64,000 bases of DNA. It comes from Psilocybe cubensis (taxonomy: Eukaryota). This document shows positions 12,163 through 54,595 of this stretch, piece by piece. Position numbers and translations under genes: made by a program. The DNA is taken from assembly GCA_017499595.2 (NCBI GenBank), contig CM039003.1, forward strand, positions 2,542,001-2,606,000. The letters run 5' to 3'. Under the pieces are notes generated by a model. The model did not search any database and was not told the origin of the DNA. It saw only the letters and a program-made list of their open reading frames with translations. Every line of letters starts with the position of its first letter. Positions within the stretch are counted from its first letter, which is position 1.

Positions 12163-12495
12163 AGCCTGTCGGGGTATGTAGTCAACCATTGCTCTTCGTG
12201 CCATACCTGTCATTTGGCATCTTTTGCGACTACAAGTCGCCGTATCATTACGCTCTTGTGTACTCTGAAGTACCCTGCCGTTGTGAGAGCGAACTCCTCA
12301 AGTCGAATAATTCTGAACCTAAGAACGTGCTTTCACGCTGGCGCTGTGTCACTCAGTTGGCAGTACGTAACGACAACGTAACGATCTATAAAAGTTTATG
12401 ATGCATTACGTGTACATGTTAATGTCTCCTTGCTTCTGACCTCAATCCAGCCTCAATCCTTCCTTAATTCAAGACGAGCCGTCGCGACATATATC

Positions 12496-29139: not shown

Positions 29140-29214
29140 GCTGGAAAGAAGCCCCAAAGGCGCAAATGCCGAAAAAAAAAATTTCTCCGGAAGGAAACGG
29201 GTTGAACGTATAAG

Positions 29215-29225
29215 AGCTTTGACCA
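29215..29225 (-). promoter_or_regulatory. Primer binding site (TGGTCAAAGCT), complementary to a sequence inside the LTR
   Basis: Begins 2 nt after the 5' LTR end; exact reverse complement of LTR positions 29343-29333. Confidence 0.8.
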
Positions 29226-29227
29226 AG

Positions 29228-29410
29228 TGTAAGGTTCTCACTGTGGTCTGCAATGCAGCACGAAAGGTAACCTAATAACGAAGTTATATAAAGAATGGAG
29301 TATGTACCAGTAGTACATACCTAATAACGAAGTGGTCAAAGCTAAAGGATATACTGTATCTACGAAGGAGGATAACAGCGCGGGATCACGTGTGTGGTCA
29401 TATCATGACA
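29228..29410 (-). repeat. 5' LTR (183 bp)
   Basis: Direct repeat of 23395-23577. Confidence 0.97.
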
Positions 29411-29914
29411 CGTAAGGAGGCATCCACGCCACCCCCGTTATTGGTTTTTTGTTTTCGAGGCTCCAGTGCAATTGCATTGACTCTCTGGTAGAACAGCCGT
29501 CAATTTTTCTTTAGACCTGATGTAGATTAATGATCCGGATTAGATTCCCAATAATGATGTATCATCAGCCACAAACGCTACGCAGTCTTATTTATTTGAC
29601 ACACAGGTTATAAGCAAAGAAAACCCTTATATTGATCCAATGAAATACAGAAGGGAAAATGGAGATATCGAGCTATGTACTATACCTTTGAATATACAAC
29701 ATGTGAGAAGAATGGTGTTACATTTAAATGTTGATGTAGAGACGATACGAGAAATGCAAGAAAGAGAAAAAAGATAAAAAAAAGAGAAGGAAATAAGGGG
29801 CATATGTGTCGTTAAACATGAACCGTGGTTTCGCTCGTCAATGGAATATGTCGCAAGGATGAATGTCTTCCGACAAAGTAGTATATGTCAGGGGTAGGGG
29901 TGGGGGAGGGTACT

Positions 29915-31093
29915 TCATTCTTCTTTCGCAGCGTTGAGAGACGGCTTGGAGGGAGAAGGAGAGGTGGGAAGAACGGAAGATGAGCGAGGACCGAATAGGT
30001 CCTCATCATCATTGACGAGAGGCGTCATCTTTCGTCGTTTCGGGCTTTCTTTCTTAGGTGTGCACGGGGTGGTATAGTGAGGGCGCAAATTGTCCTTGTC
30101 GTTTTCCTCTTCAGCTGCAGAGGGCACTGGAACGTCATCATCATGATCATCATCATCGAACTGCAAAGAACGCTTCAAGCGACGAACAGGTCGCGGGGAG
30201 GATGTGTCGGCGACTGGAAGCAACAACGCGTCGTCTTCATCTTCGAAATCGTGGTCAGAGGTCCTAGCGGCCTCCTTGAGCTGGGCTTGAAGCTTCATTT
30301 GCAAGGATTTAAATCCAAAAGGATCAGAGTCTGATCCAATTTTGTCAGCCTTGGCGTCGTTGTTGTCCTCTTGCCACAGGTCGTCGAGTTCTTCGGGGAT
30401 CGCAGCGGCCGACGAAGAGGGGCCACGAACAGTGACGTCAAAAATATTTGACGCTGATGTCATGCGACGGAAAGTCGAGGCGGATATAACAAACTCATGG
30501 TCAGATGGCGGCGAGGACGGGGGAAGAGGCGAAGACACGGCAAATTTGGGGGATGCGGGGAGGGGGATGGCGGTTGGTTCGGGCGGTGGCATTTTGAGTA
30601 CGACAACATTCGTCGCTTCTTTAGCTTCTGGATCAGCGGTTTCAGTCTCGTTGGCGTCGTCAGAAGGTGGCGGAGCGTCCTCGCCGCGGTTAGCGGCTTC
30701 AGGCGCCGGCAAGAATTGGGACGTGATGTCCTGCAGAGGCATCTTGTTCCGCAGGACCAACGCAGGTGGAGGAGCACCCTTGCCCTTCGAGGCGGTTTTC
30801 AGCTTTGGCATGAGCGCATTCTCGCTTTTGGTAGGAGCTTTCTTCGCTGTGGCTTGTCCAGATCCGAGGACGGTGGCGTTGTTGGTCGAGCCTATTGGGC
30901 GGATGCCCGCTCGGATGTGTAGTCTAGTCAAACGAGCTTGACGGCCTATGTTCTCCTTATCATCGCCTTGGATGTTGTTCTCGTTCTGTGTGCGCCTACG
31001 TGTGCGGGCGTTCGAGTTGGATGTAGACGCGCCTTTAGCTGCGTCGTTTTGCGAACCTGCGCGGGGTGCGGTCCTTGTTCTGAGGTTTGGCAT
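29915..31093 (-). CDS. Disordered protein with KEN box and FGF motif; function uncertain, 3' end uncertain
   Basis: 392-aa ATG-initiated ORF containing DKEN, LRNKMPLQDIT, DSDPFGF and several S/T-P-x-K motifs. Confidence 0.65.
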   Translation of the reverse strand: MPNLRTRTAPRAGSQNDAAKGASTSNSNARTRRRTQNENNIQGDDKENIGRQARLTRLHIRAGIRPIGSTNNATVLGSGQATAKKAPTKSENALMPKLKTASKGKGAPPPALVLRNKMPLQDITSQFLPAPEAANRGEDAPPPSDDANETETADPEAKEATNVVVLKMPPPEPTAIPLPASPKFAVSSPLPPSSPPSDHEFVISASTFRRMTSASNIFDVTVRGPSSSAAAIPEELDDLWQEDNNDAKADKIGSDSDPFGFKSLQMKLQAQLKEAARTSDHDFEDEDDALLLPVADTSSPRPVRRLKRSLQFDDDDHDDDVPVPSAAEEENDKDNLRPHYTTPCTPKKESPKRRKMTPLVNDDEDLFGPRSSSVLPTSPSPSKPSLNAAKEE

Positions 31094-37454: not shown

Positions 37455-40400
37455 ATGTCCTCAGAATTAGAAGATGAAACCTTGCTTCAAGAAGAAGAAA
37501 GTGAAGATGAATTCGATTGGGAAGAAGTCGAAGTGCCCGAACATCAAGCTCCACATCTTGAAATTACACTGCAGCTGGGCCCCAAGGCGTCCAAGAACAG
37601 CGCAAACGCGGACAAGTCGGTCGCTTCCATCACTTCTCAGTAGATTGAACGTGGTTTTTAGATCTCATTTTGGCTAGGAAGAAGGGAATAAACCATGCAG
37701 AGCGGCTTGTTCGGATTGATTGTCATAAGATTCACACTGTCGCTCTCATTGCTAGTGCTCGTCAGCGGAACCTGTGGATTAACAATTCCTTATTACATGT
37801 GCGTTTGTGCTTATTATGTGCTGTGCGGACGTTGTGTTTACGTTGAGCGTTCAGGCTAGACTTCTCTCTCTCACTCCGCTGCATCTCCAGAATGCTTTTT
37901 CAGTTATTCATAAATCCCGCGTGCCAGATCAGAACCAGCGTGGGCGCATGTTTGAGAGAGCCGTTGAGAATCTAACTACATGGTGGGCTACTACATTCTT
38001 TGAAGTGATACCCGACGGACACATACGCAACCGGACGTATGATGAAATACAGCAGAAACTCGAAATACGAGGGCTGCATATCAAGACTGCCGACGAGGAG
38101 CTACTCGACGTTGAGACTCTCCAAGATATTGTCGATGATGAAGTAGAAACGATTCGAAGTTCAAAGAGTCTTATGAAACATGCGCTTATGCGTAGCGGAT
38201 CTAGGGATACGAGTGCGCAGCTTTTTACAGCTTTGTGTAGAGGTCTGGGCATCCCCGCTCGTTTGATCGTCAGCGTGCAGAGCGTCCCATGGCAAGCCAG
38301 CATCGGAAGACCGAAGCCCAAGTATGAGAAGAAGCCGAAGGGAAAGGGGAAAGAAACAGAAGTTGTACAGGACAATGAAGCCGGCGAAGCCTCGAGTTCG
38401 AGTCAATGGGATCATCTGAAAGAGCCTGGAAATCGACTTGACGGCGGCTCCGTGCCCATGAGCGAGAAGGCAAAAGGCAAGCAAAAGGCCAAACCGATAA
38501 TCAAGCTGCGGAAAACGAAGACCAAGGGTAAGGTCTTGGGGAGGCCAACCAGACTGGGTATGTCAGCCCTTGCCATGCTTCACAGTACTATTTGTCTCAT
38601 TGTTCATGACCAGCCTCTCCGGATCCGCTAACAACGCCTCCAGTATATTGGACGGAAGTGTTCTCCAGGCCAGATTCCCGATGGTTCCCAGTTGATCCTA
38701 TTCGTGGGATCGTCAATAAACGTAAGGTGTTCGATCCGACTCCATCAACCAGCAATGTCAATGCACAGGCCAGGATACCCACAAAAGTCGAGAATCGGAT
38801 GGTCTACGTGGTTGCATTTGAAGAGGATGGATATGCCCGAGATGTGACGCGGCGGTATGCTAAAGAGTACAGCGCGAAGGTGGCAAAAGTTCAAGGTGGA
38901 AGCAACGCGCCCAATATTGGCGGTGGGGGCAAAGGCCGCCAGGCGTGGTGGGATAAGGTTGTCAGCTCCATTGAGCGACCGTTTCGATTAGTGAGCAGAC
39001 TTTCTTAATCCTAGACGAAATGTTGATGAATGAATAGAACCGCGATGATTTGGAAGATCAAGAACTGGAGGCAGTTCAGCTGATGGAGGGCATGCCTACC
39101 ACGATGTCTGGGTTCAAAGACCATCCACTGTATGCCCGCCTCATCAACTACTTTTCATGTTGCTCACTATTTCATTCAGATATGTTCTGACGCGACATCT
39201 GAAGCAAACCGAGACAATTCATCCTCCACCACCAGTTACACCAGAGCTTGGAAAGTTTAGAGGAGAGCCTGTTTACCCGCGATCGGCTGTAGTTTCTTTG
39301 AAGACGGCGGAAAATTGGATGCGAAACACGGGGCGGATGGTAAAAGCTGGCGAGCAGCCAATGAAGATGGTAAAGATCCGCGCAGGGACCGTCAATCGCA
39401 TGCGGGAACTCGAGGTCCTCAAAGATGAATTGAGCGTGGCTGGTGAAGGAACTTCGAATTCGGGCCCAGAGGTTCTGCAAGGCTTGTACGCATTTTCACA
39501 GACGGAGCCTTACGTCCCCGATCCTGTGGTCGATGTGAGTCACTTTTTTACCTACATTGTGTTGCGCTTGCTTTCGGTCGCGGTGTGATTTACGAGACAT
39601 TTTTTAGGGTAAAGTCCCTAAAAACAATTTTGGCAATATCGATCTGTACGTACCGTCTATGCTCCCTAGAGGAGCAGTGCATATACCCTGTAAGTTTTTT
39701 TTTCGGGCACCGTGTAGGCTTGGTAGAGGGGCTCAATTCATTTTTATCTTTTGTTGTCGTTCAATAAGTCAAAGGTGTTGCCAAAATAGCTCGAAAACTA
39801 GGCTTTGACTATGCCGAAGCAGTTGTACGTAGTTTTCTTTTCAATTTGCTGACCCCATCTTTAACTTGTATTCCGTATTCAGACTGGTTTTGAGTTTAAG
39901 AAACGCAGGGCGTTTCCCATACTGGAAGGAGTGGTTGTCGCAGCTGAAAATGGAGAAGCTCTGACAGAGGTAATGATCACCATTTGTATTGCGATATATT
40001 CGTTAAACCCAACTTGTCCTGCAGGCGTATTTGGAGGCTGAACGGGAAGCAGAGGAGAAAGCCAGACTCAAACGGGAAGAACGTGTACTGAAGCACTGGA
40101 AGCGCTTGATCCACGGCCTGCGCATTCGGCAGCGACTGCAGGACCAATATGCCACCAGGGCGGGTCATGGGCAGAGCCAGCACCACCATGGGCATTCGCA
40201 TTCCCACGTTGAAGCCACTGAGAGCGAAGTTAAATCGCGAGAAGGGTCGCCTCATGTTCGTACCATTCAATTTGCTTTCATTCCTCTTCCGCCCCTGTTA
40301 TTCTTTGCTTTGGCGTGGATACCAGGGGAGGAGGGCGTTATGTTAATCTAAATCTAAACCTTTTGTTTTTTTGTCTCTTTGTAGAATGATCCACAGGACA

Positions 40401-41623
40401 CGGCAGGTGGCTTCCTAGCAGGCGCGGATAAAGTGGTATACGCCTTCCATCTGCCCAAGAACACACACGTCGTGTTACCTTCTACACCTCCCCCTGGGGG
40501 TGTAGCGGAAGGTGCCGGCGCGCCGGACGCACGGCGGGATGCAGAGGAGGAAGAGGACGTACCCCGCGAGGCGTTCGTCACGTACGATCTCGACGAGGAC
40601 GACGAGGAGAAAATGGAGATTGATTACGCGGTAAATGGCGGGACGCGTGTGCAGAGTGGTGGCCCAGGCGTCAACGGGTTTGATGCTGCGTATGTCCCGA
40701 AAACGATGCAACAAATGGCTGAGGATGCTGCTGCTGAAGCTGAAGCGGCGCAGAAGCTGCAGGGCGACGGAGATGATGTGCTGGGCGAGATTATCACGAC
40801 GGAGCCCCCGCCGCCACCGCCACCGCCGCCCACAGCAGCAGCAGCTGCTGCTGCTAGCGCTTCTGCAGGTACAGGCGTGGATAAGGTTACTACTACTCCT
40901 ACGCTGCCTGGCAGAACTACGCGAGCCAGAGCCAGAGCCACTGTCTCTTCCTCGTCTGCTGCTGCTACGTTTGCGTCTACGTCTACGTCTGCGACGCCCA
41001 ACAGCCTTTCATTGCGTAAGGACGCGACGTCGACGCTTGAGGATGAGGCTCAGGCTCAGGCTCAGGCTAATGCGGGTCTGGGTTCGAGTTCGAGAAATGC
41101 TGGCACCAGGGCAGGGGCAGGGACGGCGTCACGCGCGAAACCGCCCCCGAAACCGAAGCTGGATGCGAATGGGAATGGGAATGCGAAGGTAAATGCAAAG
41201 GCAAAGGCAACGGCGAAAGGGAGAGCGAAACCTAGAGCTAGAAGTTCGGCGAAGCGGAAGCGTGGCCGTGGTCGGCGAACTGCTGCATCCGAGTCCGAGT
41301 CCGACGAGGCGGAGGAGGGGGATGAGGATGAGGAGGGGGATGAGGATGTGCCGCTGGATGATGATGATGACAATAACACTGACGAGTCCGATAAGGACGA
41401 TGACGAGGAAGATGAAGAGGATTTCGGTCCATCGCCTAGCAAGCGCGCGCGCGTAAGCGTAAAGATCAAACCTCCTCCACGCACACTTGCGCAATCTGCA
41501 CAATCTGTAACTTTGACACCACAATCAACGCGCACGCTGCGCCCGCGCGCGTCCAAGACGCCTGCGCAAATTGCGGAGGACAGGAGGCGCGAGGAGGCGT
41601 TTCGCAGGGCTGTGGCTGGATAA
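37455..41623 (+). CDS. RAD4: Nucleotide excision repair protein Rad4/XPC with a long low-complexity C-terminal tail
   Basis: FDWEEV, GSRDTSAQLFTALCRGLGIPARL, YWTEVF, ARDVTRRY, FKDHPLYVLTRHL, VPKNNFGNIDLY, TGFEFK, WKRLIHGLRIRQRL. Confidence 0.95.
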
Positions 41624-43557
41624 TGCCTACTGTTGTTGTGATTGTTTTTTCTCTTTTTTCCTTTTTTCTGTTTTTCTTTTTTTCTTTTTGGCTATGAAGA
41701 TGCTGGGTGCATCCCGTCACTATTTAATTTAGCACTGGCGTTTATCTATTTGTTTTTGTTCTTTGGAGGTGGAAACTGATTTTTTTTGCTTTGGAAATTC
41801 CGACTTTCGATGTTCCATTTTCGATTCTCGATTTTCTGTTTTGTGTTTTTTTGGATACTTGGTTGGGAATGGATATTACCTCCCTTTCTCCAAGCAGATT
41901 GATCACTGAACTTCATTCCGCGTGAAAGCTACTCAAATTTGAATTAGATTCCATCGTCCACCGTGACATACCGTACAATACAGAATACAAATTGCAACTT
42001 ACTCCCGGTTTAAATCCCGTTACATTGTACTGTATTCTCATTGTCATGTCTCGGTTCTCTTCTTCCATCTTCCATCATTATGGTCCCCAGATCTTCTTTA
42101 AAATTATAGTGATCGTTATAGTTGTATTGTAGGTAACATATCGAATGTATCCATATGCCATTTGGCATTGGTTACATTTTAATTAGTGTTCGGTTTTGTT
42201 CTATTGGATTTGAATATCATACTCATACTCGTACATACAATACTCATAGTTATATCGTCCTCCTCTGAATCTTCAAGTTGATTAATTGATAAATGACTCG
42301 GATTAATTCAATTTTTCGTTGACGAACGAAATGAAATGATTATCATTCGACGAATTGACTTGTGGGATAGAGATGAATGGATGGATGGAAAGGACAGACA
42401 AACGAACGAACGCATGAGAACGAACGAATCAATGAGAATGAGAATGAAAATGGGGATTGAATATTGAATAGGAATGTAAAGTGCTCGTATCAAGATTCGA
42501 TGGATGCTCAGTGTTCAAGCGCTCAATGCCCACACAGAACCATCCTATGGCTACACCGACATAACCCAACCCAATTCAAATTCAAATCCAAGAAGTCCAG
42601 ATATCAACCTCCAATATCCAATGTCCAACGTCCAAATTGCAACCCGAAAGCCCCCAAAATCCAAATTTTAAATCCAAAAATCCAAAGTCTGAAAGCACAT
42701 AGAAGATAGTAGAGAAAACTTCGACAGTTCAAAACACTCAAACAGAAACAGTAAACCAAAAACCAAAAACGGAAACAGTAAGAACCAAAAACAGAAACAG
42801 AAAACCCAAAAACAGAAGCAGAAGAACCAAAAGCAGAAACAGAAGAACCCAAAAACAGAAATAGAAGAACGACACAGAATAACCATAAAAATACAGATGA
42901 ACCATAATGACACCGAAGAACCAAAAGCAGAAACAGAAAAAACCAAAAAAAAAAAAAAAAGAAAGAAAAACAGACACCGTGACATAGAAAAAAACAGAAC
43001 GAAGTAAAAAATCCGACACCTCCAACACCAAACCACATTCAATTCAAATTTTCAAACCTTTTCTTGTCTGGAAATTTTATCATCTCTCGGTCTCGTTCGC
43101 GTTCGCATTTTTATCCAAAGTATCCAAAGTCGTACATCGTCTTATCTTACCCTTCACATTCACATTCACATTCAAATCCAAATCCAAATTCAATCCAAAT
43201 CTCCGTCATTTACATATGAAAGTTCTATTCGGGTTACTCGACATATCTGAATCGTACATACATCCACCCTCGAACTGCGAGCTAAAACTTGAACTTCATA
43301 ATACTAACTAGATCAGGCATCGTTTCACACCAAGGATCCGCACGCATCCGCATCCGCACTGGTGACATTGACAATGACAGTAAGAGTGAGGGTGACGGTG
43401 ACGGTGAGGGTGACGGCGTCTAAATCCTCTTTACCCACTTTACACATTTGACTCTGTCACCCTTTTGTTTTTTTTTTTTTGACTTTGCTTTCAACTTCTG
43501 TTTTCGCCCACGCATTCACTTCAACTTCTGTTTTCCGTTTCGGTTTTGACTTCAACT

Positions 43558-46500
43558 TCAACTCCTGTTTTCGGTCTCGACTTCGCTTTCCCTTGTTTTG
43601 ACTTCGACTTCAGTTTCTCTTGTTTCGACTTCAGATTTATCTCCACTTTGCCTTCCATTCACCCCCTCTCCCTCCCCCTCCCCCTCTCCACCCTCCCCCT
43701 CACCCTCCCGCACCCCCTCCCCCTCCTCCTCCTTCAAACCCAAATCAAACACACCAGAAGAAGAACCAGACCCAGAAGAAGAAGAACCCACATTAAACAC
43801 AGAAGGCACCAAACACGCAAAAGTAAGATACGAAGTGTGCCCTCGCACCTCATGTAATGCTTTTGCTACGTTTATTTTTCTTGGTGTTTGTTTTTGTGTT
43901 GGTGGTTGGGTTTGTTTTTGTGGTTGGGTTTTGTTTTGTATTTGGTTTTGGCTTTGGCTTTGGCTTTGGCTTTGAGTTGGTGTCGGTATTTGTTTTTGTG
44001 CTGGTGTCTGTGTCGGCGTTTGTGTCTGCGTCTGCGTCTGTGTTGATGTTGGTGTTGGAGTCTGTACTGTAGAACCGGATATCGTCGTAGATGACGTTGG
44101 TACAGATGCAACTGCTATTGACGTTGATGACGCTGCCGCTTCCGTTGGCGCGCTTGTACTTGATGATAGACCAGTCGTCGGTATCGGTATAGGCGCAGGC
44201 GTAGGTGTAGGCGTTACAGACATCGGCGTGGACATCTCCACATCCTCATCTCCGCGCACATCCTCATCCACATCTCCCTCCGCATCCGCATCCTCATCGC
44301 CCTCTACACCCACATCAGTACCCTCACCAGTACCCTCACCCCCACCCTCACCTCCGCTCCCACCCCCACCCGCACCCTCAATCCTCACCTTCTTACTCAC
44401 ACCCTCCTCCTCCCCGTCCTCCCTCTCTCTCTTCACCCCCACCCCCCTCCCACCCCCACCCCCCCTCGCCACCCGATTCGCCTCAACCTGCCTCACCCTC
44501 TTCTCCTCCCTCCTCACCTCGCTCGCCTTCAACCTCTCCGATACGGCCGCTACAGACTGCAGTGGTGCGTGCTGGAACACTTCGTGTGGGCGTAGGAGGG
44601 TTTCGTAGGTTGTTATTTCTTTTTTTTGTTTTTTTGTTTTTTGTGTTGAGTTTTGGGGTGGTTGGGTGGATTTTGTGGGTGGATTTGTGTGAGTGTGAGA
44701 GGGGAGGGAGAAAGAGAAAGAGAACGTTAGTCAGGTTAAGATCGATCAGAGAAGGAACAAAAAGAAGAGAAGTTATTGAAAATTTGAAAAAATTTGAGAA
44801 TCAAAAATATAAGAGCGAAGGTGATATGATAAAAGAAAGAAAGAAATAAAGAAAAGTAGCGATGAGGTCTCAAAAAACAAAAAGAAAAACAAAAAGAAAA
44901 AGAAAAAGAAAAGAAGAAAATTGTGAATCGCAATTTTCGGATATATGCGCTACAAGTTTCGCGATATATGAATTACAATTGAAATTTGGAACTGGTCAAA
45001 TTAGAACCAGAAGCAGAGGAGGAGGAGGAAGTGTCGCATACATACACCCACAGAACACAGAACAGAACACAGAAAGCCGAAAGCACGTTCCAGGGTCCAA
45101 AAATCCTGAATCCCGTACAGAGCAAAGCAAAGCGGAAAAAAAACGCCCCTCCTCTCCCCCCCCCCCCCCCAAAAAAAAAAAGAAGAAAAGAGTCAGAGAG
45201 TGGGAGTCAGAGAGCCAGAGGTGTACATGCGCTGCGTAGCGCAAATATGCACCCATACAAAACCAGAATTCAGAATCAGAATCAGAATTAGAATTCTGGA
45301 TCCGGAACGGAACAGAGCATAAAGGCAAAAAAAAAAAAAAGAAAAAAAAAGGCTTCAAAGCTGCACAAAAAAAAAAACGAAAAACACGAAAAACCAGAAA
45401 AACAGAAAAACCAGAAAACAGCAAGAAAAAACCAGAACAGAAAAACAGGTAACAGAAAAAAAACCAGGTAACAGATAACAAAAACACCTCAAAAAACCAG
45501 AAAAGCAGGGAAAAAACCCCAAACACAAACCCAAAAACAAAGACAAACTCAGCTCAGTAGCCCAGCACTCACCAGTAAACCCAGCCTCATTCAACGCGCT
45601 CACGGTGCGCAGGACCTGTTCGATGCACGGGCTGAAGCAGCATATGCGGGCTAGCGTGTCTTTCTGTTGTGTGTTGGAAATGGGTGTTAGAGATGGGTGT
45701 TAGTGATGGGCATTAGAGATGGGTGTTAGATGTGAATGTGAGGGTGTGGGTGTGGGTAAGAGTGTGAGGGTGAGGGTGGAGGGTAGGATGTGGGAGTGTA
45801 AGAAGGTAGAAGGTAGAAGGTAGAAGGGCAAAAGGGAAAGGGGAGGGGATGGGGAAGGAGGAAGGAGGAGGGGGAGGAGGGGAGAAGGAGATGGGGAGAA
45901 GGAGATGGGGAGAGGACGACGTACCCTTAACGCCTTCTTCGCATGTTCAACTGCGTCCCATGGAGCGGGTAGGTCTAGGAACACTGGGGGCGGGTGATAG
46001 TGGATGGTGGATAGTGGGAAGAAAAAAAAAAACAAGAAAGGAAAAGAAAAGAGAGAATCGTCAGCGCACCGCCATGACAAAAAAAAGGAAGAAAGACGTA
46101 CCAGCATCCACAGCATCCACAACCGTGAACCCGTCCTTGCACACATTACGATGCGTGAGCGTGATTGTACTTTCGAGACCGTGCCGGGCGAATTCTTCTC
46201 TGTATGTCGGGAGGGAGGTCAGAACGCATAAGAGAGAGAGAGAGAGAAAGACGAACTTTGCTTTGATATACCGCGCTTCATGGAACTCGTACGAGTACAA
46301 ATGTCCTTTTGCGCCAATCGTGCGTGCGACAGAGTGCGAGAACGACGCAGAGCCCGTGCCTATAACCACTCATCAGCCCCCCCCAAAAAAAAACAACGAA
46401 GAAAAAAAAAACCCACCAGCCTCAACAACCCTACTCCCCGGCCTAATCCCCAAATACGCCGTAACAAACGCAATATCCGCCACATACAAAATCTGCGTCC

Positions 46501-46807
46501 TATGCGGGAGCGCAACCGTCCACAACTCGGGCGTCGGGCGTAGGATATGGACGAAGCCGCGACCGGAGCGCGAGGGGACTTTCGAGCCGTAGGGCACGCC
46601 GATGAAGTGGTCTTGTTTGAAGTTGCCGAATTTGGTGTTGAAGTCGCGGCCGGGGGTTATGGTGAGGGGTTGGATGTTGTCGCGGGTCTGTGGGGGGAGG
46701 GGGAGGGTTAATGGGTGGGAGAGGGAGGGGAGGGAGGGAGGGGAGGGACGTACGAGCCAGACGATGACGGTGTCGCCTGCAGCGACATGACGGGCAGACG
46801 ACCACAT
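43558..46807 (-). CDS. TRM61: tRNA (adenine58-N1)-methyltransferase catalytic subunit, 7 exons
   Basis: [87 protein letters not shown]. Confidence 0.95.
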
Positions 46808-47065
46808 TAGAGTTTTTTCGTTAGAGTGGAAAAAAAGAGGTGACTAGTGAGATCTGATCTGGTGTGATGTGATGTGAGTGAATAGACCCGGAGTGCTGGG
46901 TCAGGGATAGGATTGGATTGGACGAAAAAAGAAAGAAGGAAGGAAAGATTAGATTGCGCGCGGGATCTGGAGCTTCCTCTTTCGGCGCCCCTCAAATAAA
47001 GCCTCCGTTGCTCCTACTATGCTACTCCTAGCCATCACCCTCCCCCTCTCATCCCTCTCATACCT

Positions 47066-50000
47066 ATGCCCGTCCAGCCAGACACTACGCCCTGTCTCTC
47101 TTTCAGTCCGTCTCCCTCCCCCTCTCTCTATTTCTGCTCACTCATTGACTTACAGTCGGCATCGTCGATTTCTCCCAAGAAGTACGCTCTTTATAATAAT
47201 ATAATATAATATATTATATTATATTCATGCTTTAACTGCAGGCGAAATGGCTGTTTATGACTGAATCAGTCACCGAGCTCCTCGGTACCCTCCCCCCCTC
47301 CTCCTCCCGCTAACACTAACCTCAAACGCAACGCACAGGCTACGAACCGCACGAGCTCATCGGCCGTCCCTCCCTCGAGCTCGTGCACCCCGACGAGTTC
47401 CCGCGCGTCCGGCAGCTCCATTAGTCTGTCTCCCTCTTGCAATATTTATTCTTTCGCTGACATTGATGATTTTGGTACAGCGATACAATCCAGCAGGACA
47501 AAGCAGCCGTCCTCGTCTACCTCCGCATGAAACACAAGGACAGATGTAAAGGCTACGTCCTCTGTGGCGTTGTGGGTGTCTTCTCTTTCTTTCCTTTTTC
47601 GTTTCTTGGCTCTTGGCTTACTCCCCTCTCCTCCCTCCCTCCCTCCCTCAATCCACTCAGTCAAGGTAAAAAAAATTCACATCTCAACAAGAGAAGACAC
47701 ACACAGGCTAACTCAACCGCATGCCGTAATAGAACAGTAGTCCACAACGTCCTCGTCGGCAGCGTGTCATTCGCCAGCCCCGGCGCTAAAGCGCTCCATA
47801 ACGCCTCGACTGCACAGGAGATCACTGTTATTAGTCCTGCTGCGGAGAATTTCGAGTTTAGGGTGCGTTTGTGTTTTTTTTTGTTTTTTTGGCTTTGGTT
47901 TGGGGTTTTTTTGGGTGTTTGGTTTTTTGGTTTTTTAGTTTTTTGAATGTTTGGTTTTTGGTTTTTTTGGGCGTTTGGTTCTTTGGTTCTTTTATTCTTT
48001 GGATTTTTCGGGGGGCGTTTATTTTTTTTCTTTTCTTCTTTTAATTAAGAAGAAAATGAATTGTTATTCCAGCGCGACATCCTTCTTTCTCAATCACCCC
48101 ATCTCTTATTTCCTTTTTATATCACTTTTAATTTCCTTCCTTTCCTTCCTTCCATCTCTTCTAATTTCCTTTCCTCCCCTTCCCCTCACACTTCCCCTTA
48201 ACACTCACTAACCCACCCCATTGTCCCCACAACAGAGATGGCACGACCCCTCCCCAATGCCCCCCTCCCCAATCCCAGCAAACATGGCCGACCCCGCTGC
48301 GCTCTCGCTCTCCCTTTCCTCTCTCTCGTCCCTCACATCCCATTCCTCCGCCTCCGCCTCCGCCTCGGGATCCGCGGGCCAGGGACAAGGACAGGCACAA
48401 GGACAGTTCCCGCTCTCGCCTACATCCCCCGCACCCTCCACCTCCACCTCGACGTCGTCGTCGTGGGGGAGGAGTAAAGGTGGCAGTGGTAGCCCGCGCG
48501 AAAGGGAGAGGGAGCGCGAACGCGAGCGCGAAAGGAAAAATGGGTATGGGATGGATATAGATATGGACGTTGATATGGAGGATGTTGGGCGAGATCGCGA
48601 GTATACCCGCGCGTACAGCGATAGGAAACACAGCCGCGAGTACAGCGATGAGAGGAACACGCATTATCGGAAACGCAGCGGCGAGTACGACTACGACTAC
48701 ATCAATAAAAACCGCGACTACAACAACAATAACAAAAACAGCAGCAGCGATAGCAGACACCGTTCGGATTCAGGTGGCTCCGCCTCGTCCTCCGCTGAGA
48801 TTATGCATCACAGGGGCGCGCGTGGATGTGATCGTGATCGTGATCACGCGAGCGCGCGCGGGAGGGGGAGGCTGAGTGCGAGTCGTAGTAGGAGTCGGAG
48901 TCGTAGTGGGAGTCGTAGTGGAAGCAGGAGCGGGAGTAGGAGTAGATTTGGAAGTGGAAGTGGAAGTCGCAGTGGAAGCAGGGATAGGAGCAGGAGCAGG
49001 GATAGAAGTCCAAGCAGGAGCAGCCTAAGCGACCTCTCACTTTCTTCGGAGCGCGAGAGGGAGGGGGGGTATATTCGCACGAGCAATGTGCGCGGTTCAG
49101 GTTCGCGCGGGTCGCGCGGGTATGCAGATGACGAGGAGAGGGAAAGAGATCGCGAGGAGGCACAGAGGCGCGCGCATACGCATACGCGGGGCGATAGCGA
49201 TAGCGGGCACGGGAACGGGCGTGGGGGAAGAGAGTATGTACCTGCGCCGTCGTCGTCGGCTTCGCCGCCTTCGTCTCCTCCACACGGGCACTCGCATACG
49301 CGCGCGCGCGCGCATGCGCACGCGTCCTCACATGGGCGCACGAACGCGCACAAGGACGCGCATACGCTCACTCCAGCTCTCACGCCCACGCCTACACCCA
49401 CACCCACACCAACACCCGCGCCGCAAATACCTCCCACGCCCACGCCCACGCACACCACACCCGCGCCCGCGCCCCAAATACCCCCACACCTCCCTCCGCC
49501 GCAAATACCCCCCACACCTACCCAACAAGGCCTCATAACCTTCCCGCCCCTCCCTACCAAATCCCTGCGCACCGCGCTAATCCTCGACAGGTTCTCATCG
49601 CACTCGCCTATAATGTACTGTTCCAATTCTCTCTTATTCCCCTCCTCCTCCTCTTTCTCCTCCACTCAATACCAAAATCAAAATCAAAATCAAAATCAAC
49701 AAACACTCAACACCTCAGCCTCCGCCCAAATAATCGGCTCATCATTCTACGACTGGGTCTCATCCCGCGACATCCCCGTCGTCCGGAGCTGGATCGATCT
49801 GGTGAAAGGATGGGGAGTGAATGAGAGGGGGGAGCCGAGTGATGGGGGTTTCGGGTTTGGGAGGTTTGGGTTGAGGGTTTTGAGGAGGGGGTGAGTGTTT
49901 GTTTTTTTTTTTGACTTGGGGGTTTTTGGGGTGTTTGGTTTTTGTTGGTTAACCTAAAAGACTACCTAACTAACTAACTAACTAACTAACTAACGCCCTC

Positions 50001-50449
50001 CCTCCTTATCTAGAAACCGAATACCAGAACCGCCTACACCTTCGCGCACCCGACGCGGTTCCACTTCCACCTCGCACTCACACTCGGCATCGGCATCGGC
50101 GCATCCGTATGGACAAGGGAGTAGACGGCATCCGCCTTTGAGTGCGAGTGCGAGGGCTTCGCGGGGTAATAACGGTAACGCTTCTAACGCGAATGGTAAC
50201 GGCACTGTGAATGGGAGTGGGAGTGGGAGTGGGAGTGGGTATACGAATGGCGGTGGGAGTAGGAGGCAGCGGTTAAATCAGGGATCAGGCGTCGGCGTCG
50301 GCGTCGGAGCGGGGGCAGGTGGACACATGGGTGGTGGGGTAGGAGGAGGAGCAGGGGAAGGACAAGGAGACGACTGCGAGACGTTCAAAGTGGACGCTAT
50401 ATTTTCGGCGCATTCGGATGGGCTGATGGTCATTTTGCGACGGGCTTGA
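47066..50449 (+). CDS. Fungal PAS-domain protein (two PAS-like regions separated by a low-complexity insert)
   Basis: Spliced: MPVQPDTTPCLSFIGIVDFSQEAKWLFMTESVTELLGYEPHELIGRPSLELVHPDEFPRVRQLHY...; C-terminal RTALILDRFS...IMYCSN...GSSFYDWV...VDAIFSAHSDGLMVILRRA. Confidence 0.85.
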
Positions 50450-53400
50450 GGTTTTTGAAAGGCTTGGAATTTTTGAAAATCTTGATGTTTTTGGTCTGGG
50501 GGTTTGTGGGGATCTTTTTTCTCTTTTTTCTTTTTTTTTTTTGGAGTGTTGGTTTGTTGGTTTGTTATGAGTATCGTGCTGTGCTGTGTTGTTTTCGTGT
50601 TGTCCTATGTTGTTCTATTTTTGTTCTATTTTGTTTTCGTGTTATGTTATGTTATGTCTGTATCGCTCTTGCACTTCGCGTTGGCGATTCAAGCTTTCGA
50701 GCTTCTTTGACCAATCCCTTTCTTTGTCGTTTTTTTTATCCTTCTTTGTTCCTTGTTCCTTTTTTTTGTTTTTGTTTTTGTGATATTGTATGACATCCCA
50801 TCCTCATCCTCACCCTCCATTTCGACTTCGCCTTCGACTTTGATGTAGATACCTATACCTATACCTATACCACGCCCGCATCCCACCAGCCACATCCCGC
50901 ATCCTTGCTCCTCCTTTTCTTCACTTCTCTGATTCCTACTCGCCGGCCCCATCATCCACATCCACATCCACATCCACTTTTTCCTTCTCCTTCTCCGCGT
51001 TCTTCGCATTCCTCTTCCGCCGCTAGCCAGCCAGCCAGCTAATGCGATATCCGATAATCCTCTAGAATTTTCTTGGACCACCCCTCCGCCCCGCGGTTTT
51101 CCTCTTCTTCTTCCTCTTCCGACAACGACAACAACGAGAACAACAACGACGATCGCGAGGATAACGACACCGACAACGACGATCGCGATACTCGACGACA
51201 CCGATACTCGATACGCCGACACCGATGTTGATATCCGCTGCTACGTGATCCATGATACATACCCGCCTCTAAGTCAAAGTCGAAGTTGAAATCAAAGTTG
51301 AAATCAAAGTTGAAGTTCCGAGTCGAGTCGAGTCGAGTCGAGACCGTGCTTCGCTGGAACATTCCTTTTTGCGCTGCGCTGCGCGGCGCTGCGTGGTGTG
51401 GGGTGCGCCAGAACCAGCGCCAAAACCAGCAGTAGCACTAGTACTAGCGCGTCACCACAGCGTCTATGTATCCGCACCGCACCGCGTGGTCTGCGTCGTG
51501 CTTTCCGCGTTGCGCGTCGTGCGTCGTGTTTTCCGCGTTCAGAACCGCCACCACCAACAGAAGCGCTGTTATTGTATTGTATTGAATGTGTTTTCTTTTT
51601 TTTTGGTATTTATGTACTGTTTTTCTTTCTTTTTTTTTTATTTTCATTTCATTCCATGCCTTGTCATCCCATGCTTTGTTTTGTTATTCCATGCTCATCT
51701 CCATGCTCATACCAACTCGACTCAATCGCGTGTTCCGTGCTTTTATCTTATTTTCAAGTTTCGCTCTTCGCTCTTCATTCTTCATTCTCATTCCGTCAAT
51801 TATACAATGCAACCTGCGCTCGAGCTCGAAAATACGCAGTTTGTTCCATTTTAAATTTTCAATCTTTAAACTCTAAATCCCATTTTTTAAAAAATACAAG
51901 TCGAATTTGTGTATGTATGTACAAAGTTGTGATTATTTCTTGTTCCTTGTCCCTTGTTCCTTGTTCGTTTTCGTGTTCGTGTTCGTGTTGTTGTAACAGT
52001 TGTATATACGTACGTCTGCCTTACGATTCTGATTGTGTATATATCAAGTAGTGTTCGGTATGCCATGCCTGCCTTTTTCTTGTGTGTCAGATTGGAGTGG
52101 ATGCTCGAGAGGATATGATATGACTGTGCTTGTTTGTTTTTTTACTCGGGGTATTGTGTATCTCGTCATGCGAGTTGCGTGTTGCCTCGCATGGGCGCCT
52201 AGGCGCATGTGGGTCCTAAAACCACCGACCCGAGTGAGGGGAACCCCCATTTGACATTTGATGCGCGTTGAATGTACGCGGCGTGAAAGTCACACCATCA
52301 CCATCATCATCATTATCGTCATCATCGTATACAGGGGCTCGTTTCAATTTAACTTGGGGTTATGTTTTTTTTTATTTCTTTTCTTGCGGTCTTTTTTTCA
52401 CATCTTTTTTTCACGTTTTTTTGTGCATGCATGGACCGGAATCGCAGAGTGCATGTAAGTCGCACGGTTTTTGTCGTTTACATCTGCTTTGCGATGGAAC
52501 GGGGACTGGTATACCGCGCTATACCATACCAGCCAGCGCTACAGACACGGACCATAGCATGGCATCAGCACTTAGTCAGTGAGTAGTGACTCCCTCCTAA
52601 ACTCCTAGGCCATCCAGCGCATCACTTTGCACATCCACATCCATCCCGCGGAGATGAACTGCCTCGCTTTGTATTCAAGTTGCTTCGTATTACATCGCCA
52701 TCGCTTCCTTTTTCATTTGCATTGCATCGCGCTGTGCTGAAATTGGCGTCGGATACGGTTCGGTGTCACGGTTCGCTTGAATACTGGACTTGAAGTGGCA
52801 GTGGCAGTGGCCGTAGCTTCTGTCGGTCGGTATTTTGCGCGATGCGATTGAGATAGGGCTGCTCGTTGTAGTGCTAATGGTAGTGTTTGACGTCTGGTTA
52901 TCGGGTCCATGGGGATACGATGGATATGGTTGTATAGGAGGAATAGGGAGGCGAGGCTTTGATGGAGGTGTTATTGCTATCACTATCGCTATTACTATCA
53001 CCATTACGAATACCATTACTATTAGTATCAGTATTACTATTACTATTACCAGAAACGGAACTGGAGCTGAACGAATGGATAATAGAAGTCCCAAGTCAAG
53101 TTGAAAAAAAGAAGCGAAGAAAAGAAGCAGCCGCTGCGTCTGACTGAGTAAGCAGTAATTCCAAAGTACTGTCATAACCTTCAATGGATGAATGAATTGG
53201 GGGGAGGGGGGAGGGGGAGGATACTTCAATTTGGCGTTGTGTGTGGACGTGAGTCTGACGATGAGTTTGACTCTGAACAGTGTAACTGGTACAACTACTA
53301 CTGCTGCTACTGCTGCTGCTGCGATTCAGTGCCCGAGCCCGAATCCGGGTCATGCTCGAAGTCGAAGTCGAGATCGAGACCCCTATCCCTCCCTCCCTCC

Positions 53401-54595
53401 CTCCTCCTCCGCCATCTCCCATCGCTTCTGATTCCTACCGGCATATGCATGGTCTTATCCATATCCATACCACCGCAGAATTACAAATGACGAACGAACG
53501 AATCCATCCCGGAAGAGCTCCCGACTCCGAGAATCAAGAATCAAGAATCAAGAATCGTGAATCGTGAATCGAGATACGTACACCGGCTGCCAGGCGCCAG
53601 AGTGCCAATTGCGAGAGTGCCAGATGGCAGGTGTCAACACCACGCCCCTACGCCCCACGCCTCACGCTCACGCTCACGCCCACGTCTCGGTCGGTCCTTT
53701 CCTGAGAAGGAAAAGCGAGAAATAGGGAAAGGAAAGAAGCAGATGCGGAAAAACAGATGTGGAATTGGAATTGGAATTGGAAGCGGAAGAGGAAAAGTGG
53801 AAGAGGAAGTGGAAGCACACGCAGACGAAGCTGGGATCTTAATCAGGCAGGGCAGACTTTCAGGTCCTCAAAACATCCTTTTTTTCCCTGTTCCCTGCAG
53901 GGTCTATCCTGAGAGACCGGAGGATCGCTTGCCAACTCTGTGCGCAAGTGATACATACAACTATCGCAATACATATTCTCTCGTTCACTTCCATCCCCTT
54001 CTGATTTGTGGTGTGACCCCAAATTTCCAAAACGAAGAACAAGGCATACCACAACTTGATAATCCACGATTCAAAACACCACTACAACCACTATACTATC
54101 AGCATCAAGATCAAATTGAATACCATTATCAATATCATTACCAATCCTCCGACCGATCTCAGAATATTCAGAGTCTGATGGCCTAACGCCAAAGCTTATT
54201 TTTTCTTAGAACAACAAATAACCCGACCCGAGATCCACTGAAAGTACAATGACACATTGGAGTATCTAATCTCCCATGGCAAAGTTAGAACAGTGCATTT
54301 GTCATGGTCAATGGTCATTGTCAGCACCCCCAGCCAGAAATATAAATAACTTGCGATTTGGTCCGCCACGCTAAGCCGAAAAGTTGAGGAAAAAAAACCC
54401 AAGCGTCGATGAAAAGTCTGGCTCTGGCGAGGTGATCGGATCGAATGAGGTGGAGGAGCAAGAGAAGAAACATAAAACGCGATTACAGACTGTACAAACC
54501 ACGCGACAATCCATATATGTAACCCACACACGCACGATGCCATGGACATGGATCACAAATTGTAAGTACGTTACTCACTATCAAGGGTACTATGA

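Follow-up and report, generated by a model that had tools for sequence, protein, structure and literature searches.

A local island of alternating strand skew across TRM61 and a PAS-domain gene in Psilocybe cubensis

Replication and transcription produce an excess of G+T on one strand, as in bacterial replichores, human skew domains and mammalian transcribed strands, and such skews are small in amplitude and span kilobases to megabases. In fungi, RIP acts on duplicated DNA, which it leaves AT-rich and TpA-rich, with wrecked reading frames. Cryptic simplicity arising from slippage was reportedly described by Tautz, Trick and Dover in 1986, and Yang et al. are said to have reported in 2008 that single-strand DNA at yeast breaks is hypermutable. 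The available text of Hinch et al. 2023 (Science; PMC7615360) describes mutagenesis that is strand-asymmetric where the flanks of meiotic double-strand breaks are resected; in it, the forward strand is the single strand left of the break. According to the available part of McLean and Tirosh (PMC3315797), fungal genes carry a C bias at the 5′ end of the coding strand and a G bias at its 3′ end.

The window analysed here, a stretch of 64,000 nucleotides from P. cubensis, contains an island of about 9 kb in which G-rich (C-poor) and C-rich (G-poor) blocks alternate, with TRM61 on the minus strand and a PAS-domain gene on the plus strand (Table 1). This island was shaped by a local substitution pressure that is directional and strand-asymmetric, and by massive growth of simple repeats alongside it. 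In blocks of about 100-450 bp, one strand lost C and A and became G/T-rich; silent sites are near saturation where protein function permits, and some amino acids were replaced in the same way.

Extent and periodicity of the island

An oscillating strand skew had been described at 43650-51200 in a sequence-only reading of this DNA, and it proved real: the standard deviation of GC skew in 150-bp windows is 0.464 over this interval (extremes -0.86 to +0.95), against 0.120-0.135 in Markov simulations of order 1, 3 and 5 (20 each). The block structure is also unlike that of simulated and control regions, an absolute skew above 0.5 being found in 0.33 of the windows of this interval and, on average, in at most 0.0001 of simulated ones. 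Outside 40-52 kb, the standard deviation was 0.13-0.20 in 11 of 13 4-kb bins, and 0.25 (4-8 kb) and 0.22 (52-56 kb) in the remaining two. Skewed blocks were called with a three-state HMM, which placed 31 of 39 blocks (5475 of 6777 bp) within 41000-54500 and recovered all ten of the blocks listed earlier, some of them shorter than claimed. The anomaly is a local island and not a property of the whole window. This confinement, the half share of simple sequence and the exon-linked phase described below were absent from the earlier description.

Block lengths in the island range from 25 to 452 bp, with a median of 150 bp. Autocorrelation of the GC skew stays positive as far as ~200 bp, is below zero at 250-600 bp and comes back near 1000 bp, and the dominant periods are 650 and 975 bp (range ~650-1000 bp). 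The oscillation was observed on the GC and keto/amino axes, with none on the purine/pyrimidine axis. GC and AT skews are uncorrelated in 100-bp bins (r = -0.06), and many non-coding blocks are purine-rich (G/A) or pyrimidine-rich (C/T).

Table 1. Positions of genes, exons and skew flips in the island (window coordinates).
Feature	Position	Strand	Remark
Skew island	42500-51200	.	P. cubensis; weaker margins 41000-54500
G-to-C flip	43419/43420		non-coding, downstream of TRM61
TRM61 CDS	43561-46807	-	tRNA m1A58 methyltransferase catalytic subunit
TRM61 exons	46807-46754, 46687-46415, 46357-46256, 46198-46103, 45984-45925, 45663-45574, 44619-43561	-	
TRM61 exon 2	46415-46687	-	conserved, nearly repeat-free
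TRM61 intron 6	44620-45573	-	~954 nt, low complexity
C-to-G flip	43755-43881		over TRM61 conserved C-terminal motif
G-to-C flip zone	44061-44233		in lineage-specific low-complexity insert, TRM61 exon 7
C-to-G flip	44553/44554		conserved start of TRM61 exon 7
G-to-C flip zone	44868-45146		TRM61 intron 6; palindrome 44916-44938 inside
G-to-C flip zone, diffuse	46055-46359		midpoint in TRM61 intron 3; (AG)n run 46231-46251 there
C-to-G flip	46494-46601		conserved TRM61 exon 2
Divergent promoter spacer, TRM61/PAS gene	46808-47154		sharp G-to-C flip at 46972/46973
PAS-domain gene	47155-50449	+	PF08447 present in homologues
PAS gene conserved pieces, 5′ part	47155-47181, ~47245-47284, 47339-47423, 47481-47575, 47738-47862	+	
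PAS gene conserved pieces, 3′ part	48236-49890, 50014-50449	+	
C-to-G flip	47658-47844		over conserved PAS exon 47738-47862
G-to-C flip	48068/48069		373-nt PAS intron; adjoins 26-bp near-palindrome 48031-48056
G-to-C flip zone	49009-49367		low-complexity part of large PAS exon; (CG)n-type palindrome 49293-49318
C-to-G flip, sharp	49784/49785		conserved C-terminal part of large PAS exon
G-to-C flip, sharp	49952/49953		middle of last PAS intron (49891-50013)
G-to-C flip zone	50657-50794		PAS 3′UTR or intergenic DNA

Silent sites, mirror symmetry and lineage

TRM61 introns 2, 3 and 4 were confirmed by spliced joints in contig X10. Low-complexity inserts bring the protein to 600 aa, whereas that of relatives has ~400-495 aa. 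On the coding strand, intron 6 passes from G/T-rich through T/C-rich to C/A-rich. The PAS gene model is provisional at its start codon and at both exact ends of the 47576-47737 intron; its exon 48236-49890 is mostly low complexity, with a conserved C-part at 49531-49890.

The change of codon endings claimed for TRM61 exon 2 was confirmed. Codons 1-50 are 90% C/A-ending (third positions C38 A7 G3 T2; 4-fold sites C22 G3 T1 A1), the final 41 codons are 95% G/T-ending (G24 T15 C2; 4-fold sites G14 T6 C2), and the switch, near 46537/46538, is sharp to ~10 nt. The third base is C (or G/T) regardless of neighbouring bases, and therefore was not copied from them. The blocks span splice borders, one comprising intron 1 and the 5′ half of exon 2, the next its 3′ half and intron 2. 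A switch in the PAS C-terminal region, also noted earlier, was located in the conserved part (Table 1).

Analysis of silent-site clustering gave z = 15 for the TRM61 conserved core (0/1000 permutations) and z = 11.9 for the PAS ORF, against -1.5 to 3.5 for 10 control ORFs. The skew at synonymous sites is kept after repeat masking, with z = 11.2 for third-position autocorrelation in the TRM61 core (0/2000 permutations) and z = 5.6 for its 4-fold sites on the G-C axis (1/2000). The composition of 4-fold sites in conserved exons was A.07, C.07, G.56, T.29 in G-polarity neighbourhoods (n=55) and A.15, C.60, G.17, T.08 in C-polarity ones (n=87), against A.24, C.25, G.22, T.29 in control ORFs (n=2328). 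The two polarities are not exact mirrors, G being only mildly down at C-polarity sites (.17 vs.22 in controls). GC3 is raised to 0.64-0.73, against 0.44-0.56 in controls, which are not housekeeping genes. Silent sites that follow the blocks, and blocks that cross exon-intron borders, bear out the strand-specific directional substitution with fixed local phase that had been proposed.

The ten G-to-C flips all lie in introns, spacers (3′UTR/intergenic DNA included) or lineage-specific low-complexity inserts; conserved coding sequence holds none of them and six of the ten C-to-G flips (Fisher p ~0.011, by hand). The skew phase is tied to conserved exons versus non-coding or low-complexity DNA. 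Third positions of up to 20 codons after the 3′ splice site read C100 A43 G28 T15, and those of up to 20 codons before the 5′ splice site G61 T45 C29 A11 (exon starts vs exon ends in the two genes, Fisher p ~1e-19). The pattern is dyad-symmetric: on either strand, conserved exons pass 5′ to 3′ from C/A-rich to G/T-rich. Since TRM61 and the PAS gene lie on opposite strands, the pattern is alike on both, which supplies the reason, missing from the earlier claim, why gene orientation does not explain it. This mirror symmetry of the flips is a new point beyond the earlier observation. The flip in the divergent spacer makes the coding strand C-rich at the 5′ end of each gene. Of the four island palindromes whose arms reach 11 nt or more, three sit in G-to-C flip zones.

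Amino-acid replacements specific to P. cubensis, polarised with a consensus drawn from 18 Agaricomycetes, most of them Agaricales, comprised 16 toward the local polarity, 3 away and 4 neutral (p=0.004). In 224 conserved columns, P. cubensis has 8 private replacements and its five closest relatives 0-2. Across exon 2 the G/T-ending share shifts by 0.85 in P. cubensis; the flip was found in none of 55 metagenomic TRM61 homologues (from 80 loci, those whose HSP reached 80 aa or more), whose shift had a mean of 0.048, a standard deviation of 0.119 and a maximum of 0.36. In-frame intron translations of relatives are of mixed composition. Outgroup polarisation and homologous loci alike support the directional process, and among the sequences compared the pattern is specific to the P. 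cubensis lineage. When 40 listed strain differences were polarised, informative window-private alleles ran 7 toward and 5 against, giving no support for an ongoing bias.

Candidate causes of the skew

From the axis and polarity we tentatively infer, while stopping short of calling it probable, that the skew may be the scar of breaks that recur and whose resected tails are damaged while single-stranded. Breaks would recur at the G-to-C flips, which would be meiotic hotspots or else simple-sequence or palindromic tracts prone to breakage. Resection, 5′ to 3′, would leave the top strand single-stranded left of the break and the bottom strand right of it; single-strand-specific damage (C>N, A>N) with error-prone gap filling would deplete C and A from the exposed strand, so that each break would come to lie between G/T-rich DNA on its left and C/A-rich DNA on its right. 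The reverse flip would fall in the exons between adjacent break sites, where their zones of influence come together. Recurring repair synthesis at each break site would also lengthen simple repeats, and expanded tracts would be more fragile, making the process self-reinforcing and local. The break account fits because the axis (C and A lost together) and the polarity match resected-tail damage.

Several observations count against it. First, the exonic C-to-G flips are sharp (~10 nt; 49784/49785), whereas graded resection tracts should meet gradually. Secondly, ten sites in ~8 kb, 0.6-1.2 kb apart, are denser than hotspot spacing; yeast resection extends over ~0.8 kb, and the supposed break spacing here is counted as shorter. 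Thirdly, the G/A- or C/T-rich non-coding blocks are unpredicted by C/A loss alone. In addition, the polarities are imperfect mirrors, the strain differences are nearly balanced (7 toward vs 5 against), and the choice of this island over its neighbours is left unaccounted for by the model.

It seems unlikely that simple-sequence growth alone, by replication slippage (‘cryptic simplicity’), left the blocks as a by-product. Splice signals, codon repeats and the pyrimidine tracts of promoters would have supplied short skewed motifs that multiplied within introns, spacers and disordered stretches of coding sequence, the repeated short unit being inherently skewed. Consistent with such growth, TRF arrays occupy 40% of 42.5-51.2 kb, a share that rises to 50% once two-letter low complexity is added (elsewhere 1-3%); the enlarged TRM61 protein, the long intron 6 and the many indels between strains point the same way. 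Masking of TRF arrays and two-letter low complexity reduced the standard deviation of GC skew in 200-bp bins from 0.41 to 0.249 (23 bins), against 0.160 and 0.146 in controls; the island skew outlasts masking, so it is more than repeats. Slippage does not explain why repeat-free conserved exons are still skewed at silent and 4-fold sites, why exon 2 third bases are independent of their neighbours or why amino-acid replacements follow the polarity, and it gives no cause for G-to-C flips avoiding, and C-to-G flips occupying, conserved exons. The data suggest that exon changes are mostly strand-specific point substitutions without templating from nearby repeats.

Somewhat less likely still is a cause coupled to transcription or splicing, whether mutational asymmetry (RNA polymerase, R-loops, spliceosome) or selection on the pre-mRNA, in which C/A-rich exon starts and G/U-rich exon ends would act as splicing signals for long simple introns. 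The coding strands of both genes do show C/A-ending exon starts and G/T-ending exon ends, the sign is that of the fungal 5′ C-bias and 3′ G-bias in the available part of PMC3315797, and with two genes only, a coding-strand rule is indistinguishable from a dyad-symmetric one. However, the exon-phased third-position pattern was not found at 17 predicted introns elsewhere in the window (GC skew -0.05 upstream of 5′ splice sites and +0.08 downstream of 3′ ones) or in the 55 TRM61 homologues, and flips also occur away from splice sites, in the promoter spacer, the 3′UTR and inside long exons. Deamination of the displaced strand in promoter R-loops would be expected to leave C-poor coding-strand 5′ ends, opposite to those observed, and RNA folds of two exon-intron stretches were no better than shuffles (z +0.93, -1.47).

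Nucleosome-phased mutation, with strands exposed unequally on either side of the dyad and one C-to-G flip per dyad, is highly improbable: its dyad symmetry would yield the observed symmetry, and exons are often nucleosome-occupied, but no peak at 150-200 bp was seen in the spectrum of island skew, the periods are much longer and blocks reach 452 bp. The sequence-only reading is therefore partly supported, since the substitution process stands, the nucleosome anchor is not supported, and the break anchor fits in axis and polarity while its link to breaks is conjectural. An assembly or sequencing artefact, such as strand-specific conversion errors or a chimeric join, is excluded for practical purposes: block sizes approach read or fragment lengths and blocks poor in C or in G have a superficial likeness to converted strands, but amino-acid sequences are conserved with change confined to permissive sites, an independent run (X13) covers all 30 bins of the stretch with raw Illumina reads, parts of it recur in contigs from two further studies, and the spliced, transcript-like contig X10 carries the TRM61 exons with the same codons save 12 differences (four listed exon pieces). 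The island is indel-rich, with 253 differences from run X13 in 9 kb.

Relation to described systems

The island shares with RIP strand-coordinated clustered transitions in a fungal genome, but its GC content is 0.48-0.57 (44-52 kb), its conserved genes are intact and G/C is favoured at 4-fold sites. Like the G+T excess of replication and transcription, it follows the keto/amino axis and changes sign at defined points; unlike it, the blocks measure 0.1-0.45 kb, absolute skew reaches 0.95 and signs are independent of gene orientation. Dense scrambled short repeats and high indel polymorphism recall cryptic simplicity and microsatellite-rich hypervariable regions, as does codon-repeat expansion in disordered protein parts, whereas silent-site strand switches in repeat-free conserved exons and exon-phased symmetry do not.

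In both genes, C is favoured at the 5′ end and G at the 3′ end, the same sign as in the fungal gene-end skew (PMC3315797, available part). Effects on 4-fold sites and amino-acid use, and the reach into promoters and UTRs, are common to the island and that skew. The skew of McLean and Tirosh is, in the same text, genome-wide with a single gradient per gene; the island shows several near-saturating flips per gene or exon, confined to one place, and its pattern is missing from the control sequences of the window (17 introns, 10 ORFs).

The available text of Hinch et al. (PMC7615360) concerns human PRDM9 hotspots, short-lived sites where de novo mutations are in excess and whose flanks measure 1-2 kb, and reports no standing sequence skew for them; the island, by contrast, has a near-saturated standing composition, 0.1-0.45 kb blocks and about ten putative centres in 8 kb. 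The two systems are alike in C>N and A>N acting together on the single-stranded strand, in the sign change at the centre and in indels or repeat instability at the same sites, and the polarity equals that in the human data if the breaks correspond to the G-to-C flips.

Extent and gene content of the skew island

Over the interval 43650-51200, GC skew in 150-bp windows ranged from -0.86 to +0.95 with a standard deviation (sd) of 0.464, compared with 0.13-0.20 in 11 of the 13 4-kb bins outside 40-52 kb (0.25 at 4-8 kb, 0.22 at 52-56 kb) and 0.120-0.135 in Markov simulations of order 1, 3 and 5. High skew combined with low base entropy set in at about 42.5 kb and ended at about 51.2 kb, and weaker margins spanned 41-54.5 kb: the skew anomaly is a local island. 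A three-state HMM placed 31 of the 39 skewed blocks of the window (5475 of 6777 bp) within 41000-54500, where block length had a median of 150 bp, an interquartile range of 90-242 bp and a maximum of 452 bp. All ten blocks listed in an earlier sequence-only reading were recovered, some of them shorter than it had proposed. Two isolated skewed blocks outside the island, one C-rich (322 bp) within a serine-rich ORF and one G-rich (288 bp), may represent the same phenomenon on a small scale. An ORF at the border of the island contains many short tandem repeats and, of all controls, showed the strongest clustering at silent sites (z=3.5, 1 of 1000), as though the island effect faded in gradually.

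The island holds two genes. A minus-strand ORF is 100% identical to a public P. cubensis protein named TRM61 (600 aa), the next-best matches (65-69% identity) coming from Gymnopilus, P. cyanescens, Galerina and other contigs. TRM61 has seven exons on this strand; introns 2, 3 and 4 were confirmed by a spliced contig of sequencing run X10 (joints 46358>46416, 46199>46257 and 45983>46102), intron 6 consists of about 954 nt of simple sequence, and the last exon carries large low-complexity inserts absent from relatives. The public TRM61 model (P0001) reads intron 1, 66 nt long and in frame, as 22 residues. These residues are absent in 18 homologues, the intron ends are GT..AG, and a piece of the X10 contig stops exactly at 46687; their presence in the model is probably an annotation error due to an open, C-rich intron. 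The plus-strand neighbour is a PAS-domain gene, a label based on the precomputed PF08447 of three of the four homologues found; a Pfam search of its ORF pieces returned nothing at E<=0.01, and an annotated P. cubensis PAS protein was not among these four matches. Low-complexity coding sequence and long simple introns lie between its conserved pieces.

The rest of the window is ordinary, with a Ty3/Gypsy element, two F-box ORFs, and dehydrogenase-like, transglutaminase-like and BNR ORFs. The Ty3/Gypsy retrotransposon is apparently intact, its pol ORF (1442 aa) matching protease, RT, RNase H, integrase and chromodomain and its gag ORF (428 aa) having a zinc knuckle; skew clustering is absent from the codon positions of the element.

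Coordinates of features in and around the skew island (positions in the window)
Feature	Position	Strand	Remark
TRM61 ORF	46373-46843	-	
TRM61 exon 2	46415-46687	-	
TRM61 intron 1	46688-46753	-	
Spacer	46808-47154		TRM61 and PAS gene diverge from it
PAS gene, conserved piece	47155-47862	+	tblastn
PAS gene, conserved piece	49532-49888	+	tblastn
PAS gene, conserved piece	50372-50446	+	tblastn
5' block, TRM61	46807-46972		G on plus, C on TRM61 coding strand
5' block, PAS gene	46973-47146		C on PAS coding strand
3'-end block	43420-43755		
3'-end block	50206-50657		
Palindrome	44916-44938		
Palindrome	47198-47225		
Palindrome	48031-48056		
Palindrome	49293-49318		
Linked strain differences	44312-44336		X5, X6, X13
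Linked strain differences	45698-45718		X5, X6, X13
ORF bordering the island	40385-41623	+	
Isolated block	6319-6640		C-rich
Serine-rich ORF	6101-6838		
Isolated block	29702-29989		G-rich
F-box ORF	12382-14259	+	625 aa; control; tandem with next
F-box ORF	14739-16517	+	592 aa; control
Ty3/Gypsy retrotransposon	23732-29271	-	

Among the matches listed, the stretch or parts of it were present in 11 runs from four studies. Independent raw Illumina reads (run X13) covered 30 of 30 bins, contigs of runs X5 and X6 covered 29 of 30 bins each, and X10 contained spliced TRM61 exons; together these reads and contigs exclude an artefact. None of the runs listed is recorded as RNA; the spliced joints show that the X10 contig derives from transcripts, and we guess X10 to be an RNA run. 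The island is very variable between strains in a comparison made for 42500-51500 alone: X13 differed from the window at 253 places in 9 kb, indels against the compared runs were many, and 1008 of 1512 reads fitted only partly. Some strain differences fall in linked clusters, of which two examples are tabulated.

Silent sites, flips and the direction of change

Simple-sequence growth by slippage, taken alone as the cause of the skew, accounts for the repeats, tandem and cryptically simple, that are dense in the island: TRF marked a fraction of 0.396, and TRF with a two-letter mask 0.501, versus 0.011-0.026 elsewhere. Masking lowered the sd of GC skew in the island from 0.41 to 0.249, versus 0.146 and 0.160 in controls (200-bp bins). 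The skew thus survives repeat masking, and it does so at unmasked silent sites as well; its disappearance there was the outcome that would have refuted the sequence-only reading. That reading had also noted a codon switch within exon 2 of TRM61, and third positions bear it out: the first 50 codons of this conserved, nearly repeat-free exon end in C38 A7 G3 T2, its last 41 in G24 T15 C2; the corresponding 4-fold sites were C22 G3 T1 A1 and G14 T6 C2.

For a null, synonymous codons were permuted among positions of the same amino acid, and the autocorrelation of G/T- versus A/C-ending codons was taken over lags 1-10. The conserved core of TRM61 reached z=15.0 (0 of 1000 permutations), exon 2 alone z=13.3 and the large PAS ORF z=11.9, against -1.5 to 3.5 in ten control ORFs. 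With unmasked codons alone, the core retained z=11.2 (0 of 2000), and its 4-fold sites on the G-C axis z=5.6 (1 of 2000). Whole codon families change with the blocks (arginine CGC to AGG, serine TCC to AGT, leucine CTC to TTG), and blocks cross exon-intron borders, intron 1 and the 5' half of exon 2 forming one block, the 3' half of exon 2 and intron 2 the next. The island is therefore partly simple sequence, but its skew extends beyond the repeats; slippage leaves both the silent-site switches in conserved exons and their phase unaccounted for, and is unlikely to be the sole cause.

The phase is set relative to exons. Over both genes, third positions in up to 20 codons after a 3' splice site were C100 A43 G28 T15 (11 exon starts), whereas those in up to 20 codons before a 5' splice site were G61 T45 C29 A11 (nine exon ends; C/A versus G/T, Fisher p ~1e-19). 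Since the genes lie on opposite strands and the C-then-G rule is identical on either, the pattern is dyad-symmetric, and gene orientation cannot explain the skew, as the sequence-only reading had held. In 43.2-50.8 kb the HMM gave ten flips at which the plus strand turns from G-rich to C-rich (G-to-C flips), five of them abrupt with 0 bp between blocks, and ten of the opposite kind (C-to-G flips). Eight G-to-C flips were non-coding, two fell in lineage-specific low-complexity coding sequence and none in conserved coding sequence; the numbers for C-to-G flips were two, two and six (conserved versus not conserved, Fisher p ~0.011, by hand). Flips also occur away from splice sites, in the promoter spacer (46972/46973), the 3'UTR and the interior of long exons.

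These symmetry arguments, coming from just two genes, do not discriminate against a cause coupled to transcription or splicing. Such a cause fails at control introns: exon phasing was absent at 17 introns predicted de novo elsewhere in the window, some of which may be false, with third-position GC skew of -0.05 before 5' splice sites and +0.08 after 3' splice sites. It also fails at the flips without splice sites, its promoter R-loop version predicts the opposite sign, and the pattern is missing in 55 TRM61 homologues. We judge it improbable.

These 55 homologues, out of 80 metagenomic TRM61 loci, had an HSP of at least 80 aa over the exon-2 segment. The shift in G/T-ending share along exon 2 averaged 0.048 among them (sd 0.119, maximum 0.36), while that of P. 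cubensis is 0.85 (39/41 minus 5/50), 6.7 sd out. The largest shifts of the 55 (dK 0.33-0.36) belonged to two loci of one metagenome, L042 and L043, whose third-position GC skew moves from -0.6/-0.7 to -0.17/+0.18, a weak form of the 5' C to 3' G trend. Gene calls of relatives on short contigs read through introns 1 and 2 with translations of mixed composition; intron 1 of P. cubensis reads as proline, serine and leucine, implying C-rich DNA.

Direction of change was polarised through amino-acid replacements only; the reference was a consensus built from 18 further Agaricomycetes, mostly Agaricales, and each change was inferred from the nearest ancestral codon. Where local skew was distinct (|K| of at least 0.15), 16 P. 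cubensis-specific replacements in TRM61 went toward the local polarity, 3 away and 4 were neutral (binomial p=0.004), the codon contributing 3 of the 91 bases by which its polarity was defined. Among the replacements are I>V, K>R and K>G within G/T blocks, and V>T, D>H and M>T within C/A blocks. Across 224 well-conserved columns, 8 replacements are private to P. cubensis, compared with 0-2 for its five closest relatives, a difference that is suggestive only because branch lengths are uncontrolled.

Base shares at 4-fold degenerate sites
Site class	A	C	G	T	n
Conserved exons, G-polarity	.07	.07	.56	.29	55
Conserved exons, C-polarity	.15	.60	.17	.08	87
Control ORFs	.24	.25	.22	.29	2328

The shares at 4-fold sites indicate a joint loss of C and A from one strand and a loss of T, and less clearly of G, from the other; where G is concerned the two polarities mirror each other imperfectly, at.17 in C-polarity sites versus.22 in controls. 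GC and AT skew were uncorrelated over all 100-bp bins (r=-0.06), and G/A- or C/T-rich composition is common among non-coding blocks, so that silent sites are where the keto/amino description fits best. For the G-C and keto/amino indicators, autocorrelation stayed above zero up to about 200 bp, fell below it at 250-600 bp and returned to about zero or a little more around 1000 bp; the purine/pyrimidine indicator remained positive without oscillation (control ACF about 0.01 or less). Mutation phased by nucleosomes, to which the sequence-only reading had tentatively anchored the blocks, has the wrong period and is highly improbable, as neither autocorrelation nor periodogram gave a nucleosome-scale period (~150-200 bp), the strongest periods being 650 and 975 bp.

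Four further candidates were rejected. RNA folds at 46350-46810 (-; z +0.93) and 49500-50150 (+; z -1.47) were no better than shuffles, which speaks against selection on RNA structure. Long inverted repeats are just 70-81% complementary, a level that composition alone can give, which removes a fold-back or palindromic origin of adjacent blocks. Seeding by the encoded protein found r of -0.11 to -0.21 between ancestral first/second-position and P. cubensis third-position skew, a value reached by a fraction of 0.70-0.81 of circular-shift nulls. Neighbour-templated (dislocation) substitution in exons was set aside, third bases being C, or G/T, whatever the adjacent bases.

Recurrent breaks as a candidate source

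We are highly confident that the island phenomenon is real and driven by substitution. The directional pressure that has acted in it is local, specific to the lineage and strand-asymmetric; it is filtered by protein constraint, coupled to repeat growth, and fixed in a mirror-symmetric phase. Recurrent breaks at G-to-C flips are a plausible source, to which we give somewhat less than even credence. Resection from a break at such a flip would expose single-stranded DNA, of the top strand to the left and of the bottom strand to the right, a geometry stated by Hinch et al. 2023 (PMC7615360), who attribute break-flank mutations to single-strand damage and translesion gap filling and describe many indels at the same break sites. 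Long accumulation at stable sites would make the sequence G/T-rich to the left and C/A-rich to the right of each break, with the reverse flip between breaks. The predicted axis is the observed one, and the polarity would also agree if breaks sit in introns, spacers and low-complexity inserts. Repeated repair could expand repeats and render the tracts more fragile, a possible reason for a runaway, local island.

Of seven near-perfect palindromes in the window (arms at least 11 nt, spacer at most 6), four are in the island, and three of the four lie inside G-to-C flip zones (p ~0.03 by a rough hand estimate, suggestive only). Several points count against the break-scar reading. Exon flips are sharper than expected where graded tracts meet, ten or so sites within 8 kb are very closely packed, and G depletion at C-polarity sites is weak. 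Blocks rich in purines or in pyrimidines call for a further cause, for instance polypyrimidine tracts or slippage. In a small sample of polarised strain differences (the 40 listed of 317) no clear bias is seen, 7 informative window-private alleles being toward the local polarity and 5 against.

A broader proposal, which we hold to be rather doubtful, is that, in a fungus whose hotspots do not move fast, long-fixed break sites imprint a standing keto/amino skew, mirror-symmetric, on the DNA to both sides, the island being an extreme, readable example and a low-intensity form explaining the 5' C-bias and 3' G-bias of fungal gene ends. Such standing skew would dictate codon choice, push replacements in essential genes and seed runaway simple-repeat growth.

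Significance and relation to known systems

Over a few hundred bases, a strand-specific pressure of purely local reach can prevail over codon usage, and even over the choice of amino acid, in genes that are conserved and essential. Tools for codon usage, dN/dS and gene prediction presume homogeneous composition within genes; the public TRM61 model, which appears to carry an in-frame intron as protein, is a practical example. If the break-scar reading is true, the island would offer a sequence-only readout of long-lived fungal break or recombination sites and a mechanism for unexplained fungal gene-end GC skews, and would link break repair with the evolution of silent sites and the origin of protein segments of low complexity. 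Under the broader proposal of fixed breaks, break landscapes would be readable from sequence as G-to-C flips.

Gene-end skew, break-flank asymmetry and cryptic simplicity are already known. Among the papers listed by full-text literature searches, none describes an island of this kind or connects fungal GC-skew flips with break hotspots, and the P. cubensis assembly paper says nothing of skew, repeats or strand. To the extent of these searches, a mosaic that is near-saturated, exon-phased and mirror-symmetric and that recasts codon choice in essential genes is undescribed.

The fungal gene-end GC skew described by McLean and Tirosh, a 5' C-bias and 3' G-bias of the coding strand, has the same sign at the 5' and 3' ends of both island genes, as seen in the 5' and 3'-end blocks tabulated. 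It is, however, a single genome-wide 5'-to-3' gradient per gene, whereas the island has several flips per gene and exon, and the 10 control ORFs and 17 control introns gave no comparable signal. RIP yields an AT-rich product with degraded reading frames; the island has a GC content of 0.48-0.57 over 44-52 kb (2-kb bins), and its frames are intact and conserved, one being spliced in a transcript-like contig. Of the features expected of a footprint of break and resection mutagenesis, a change of sign at discrete centres and a joint hit on C and A are found in the island, the latter with the imperfect mirror for G.
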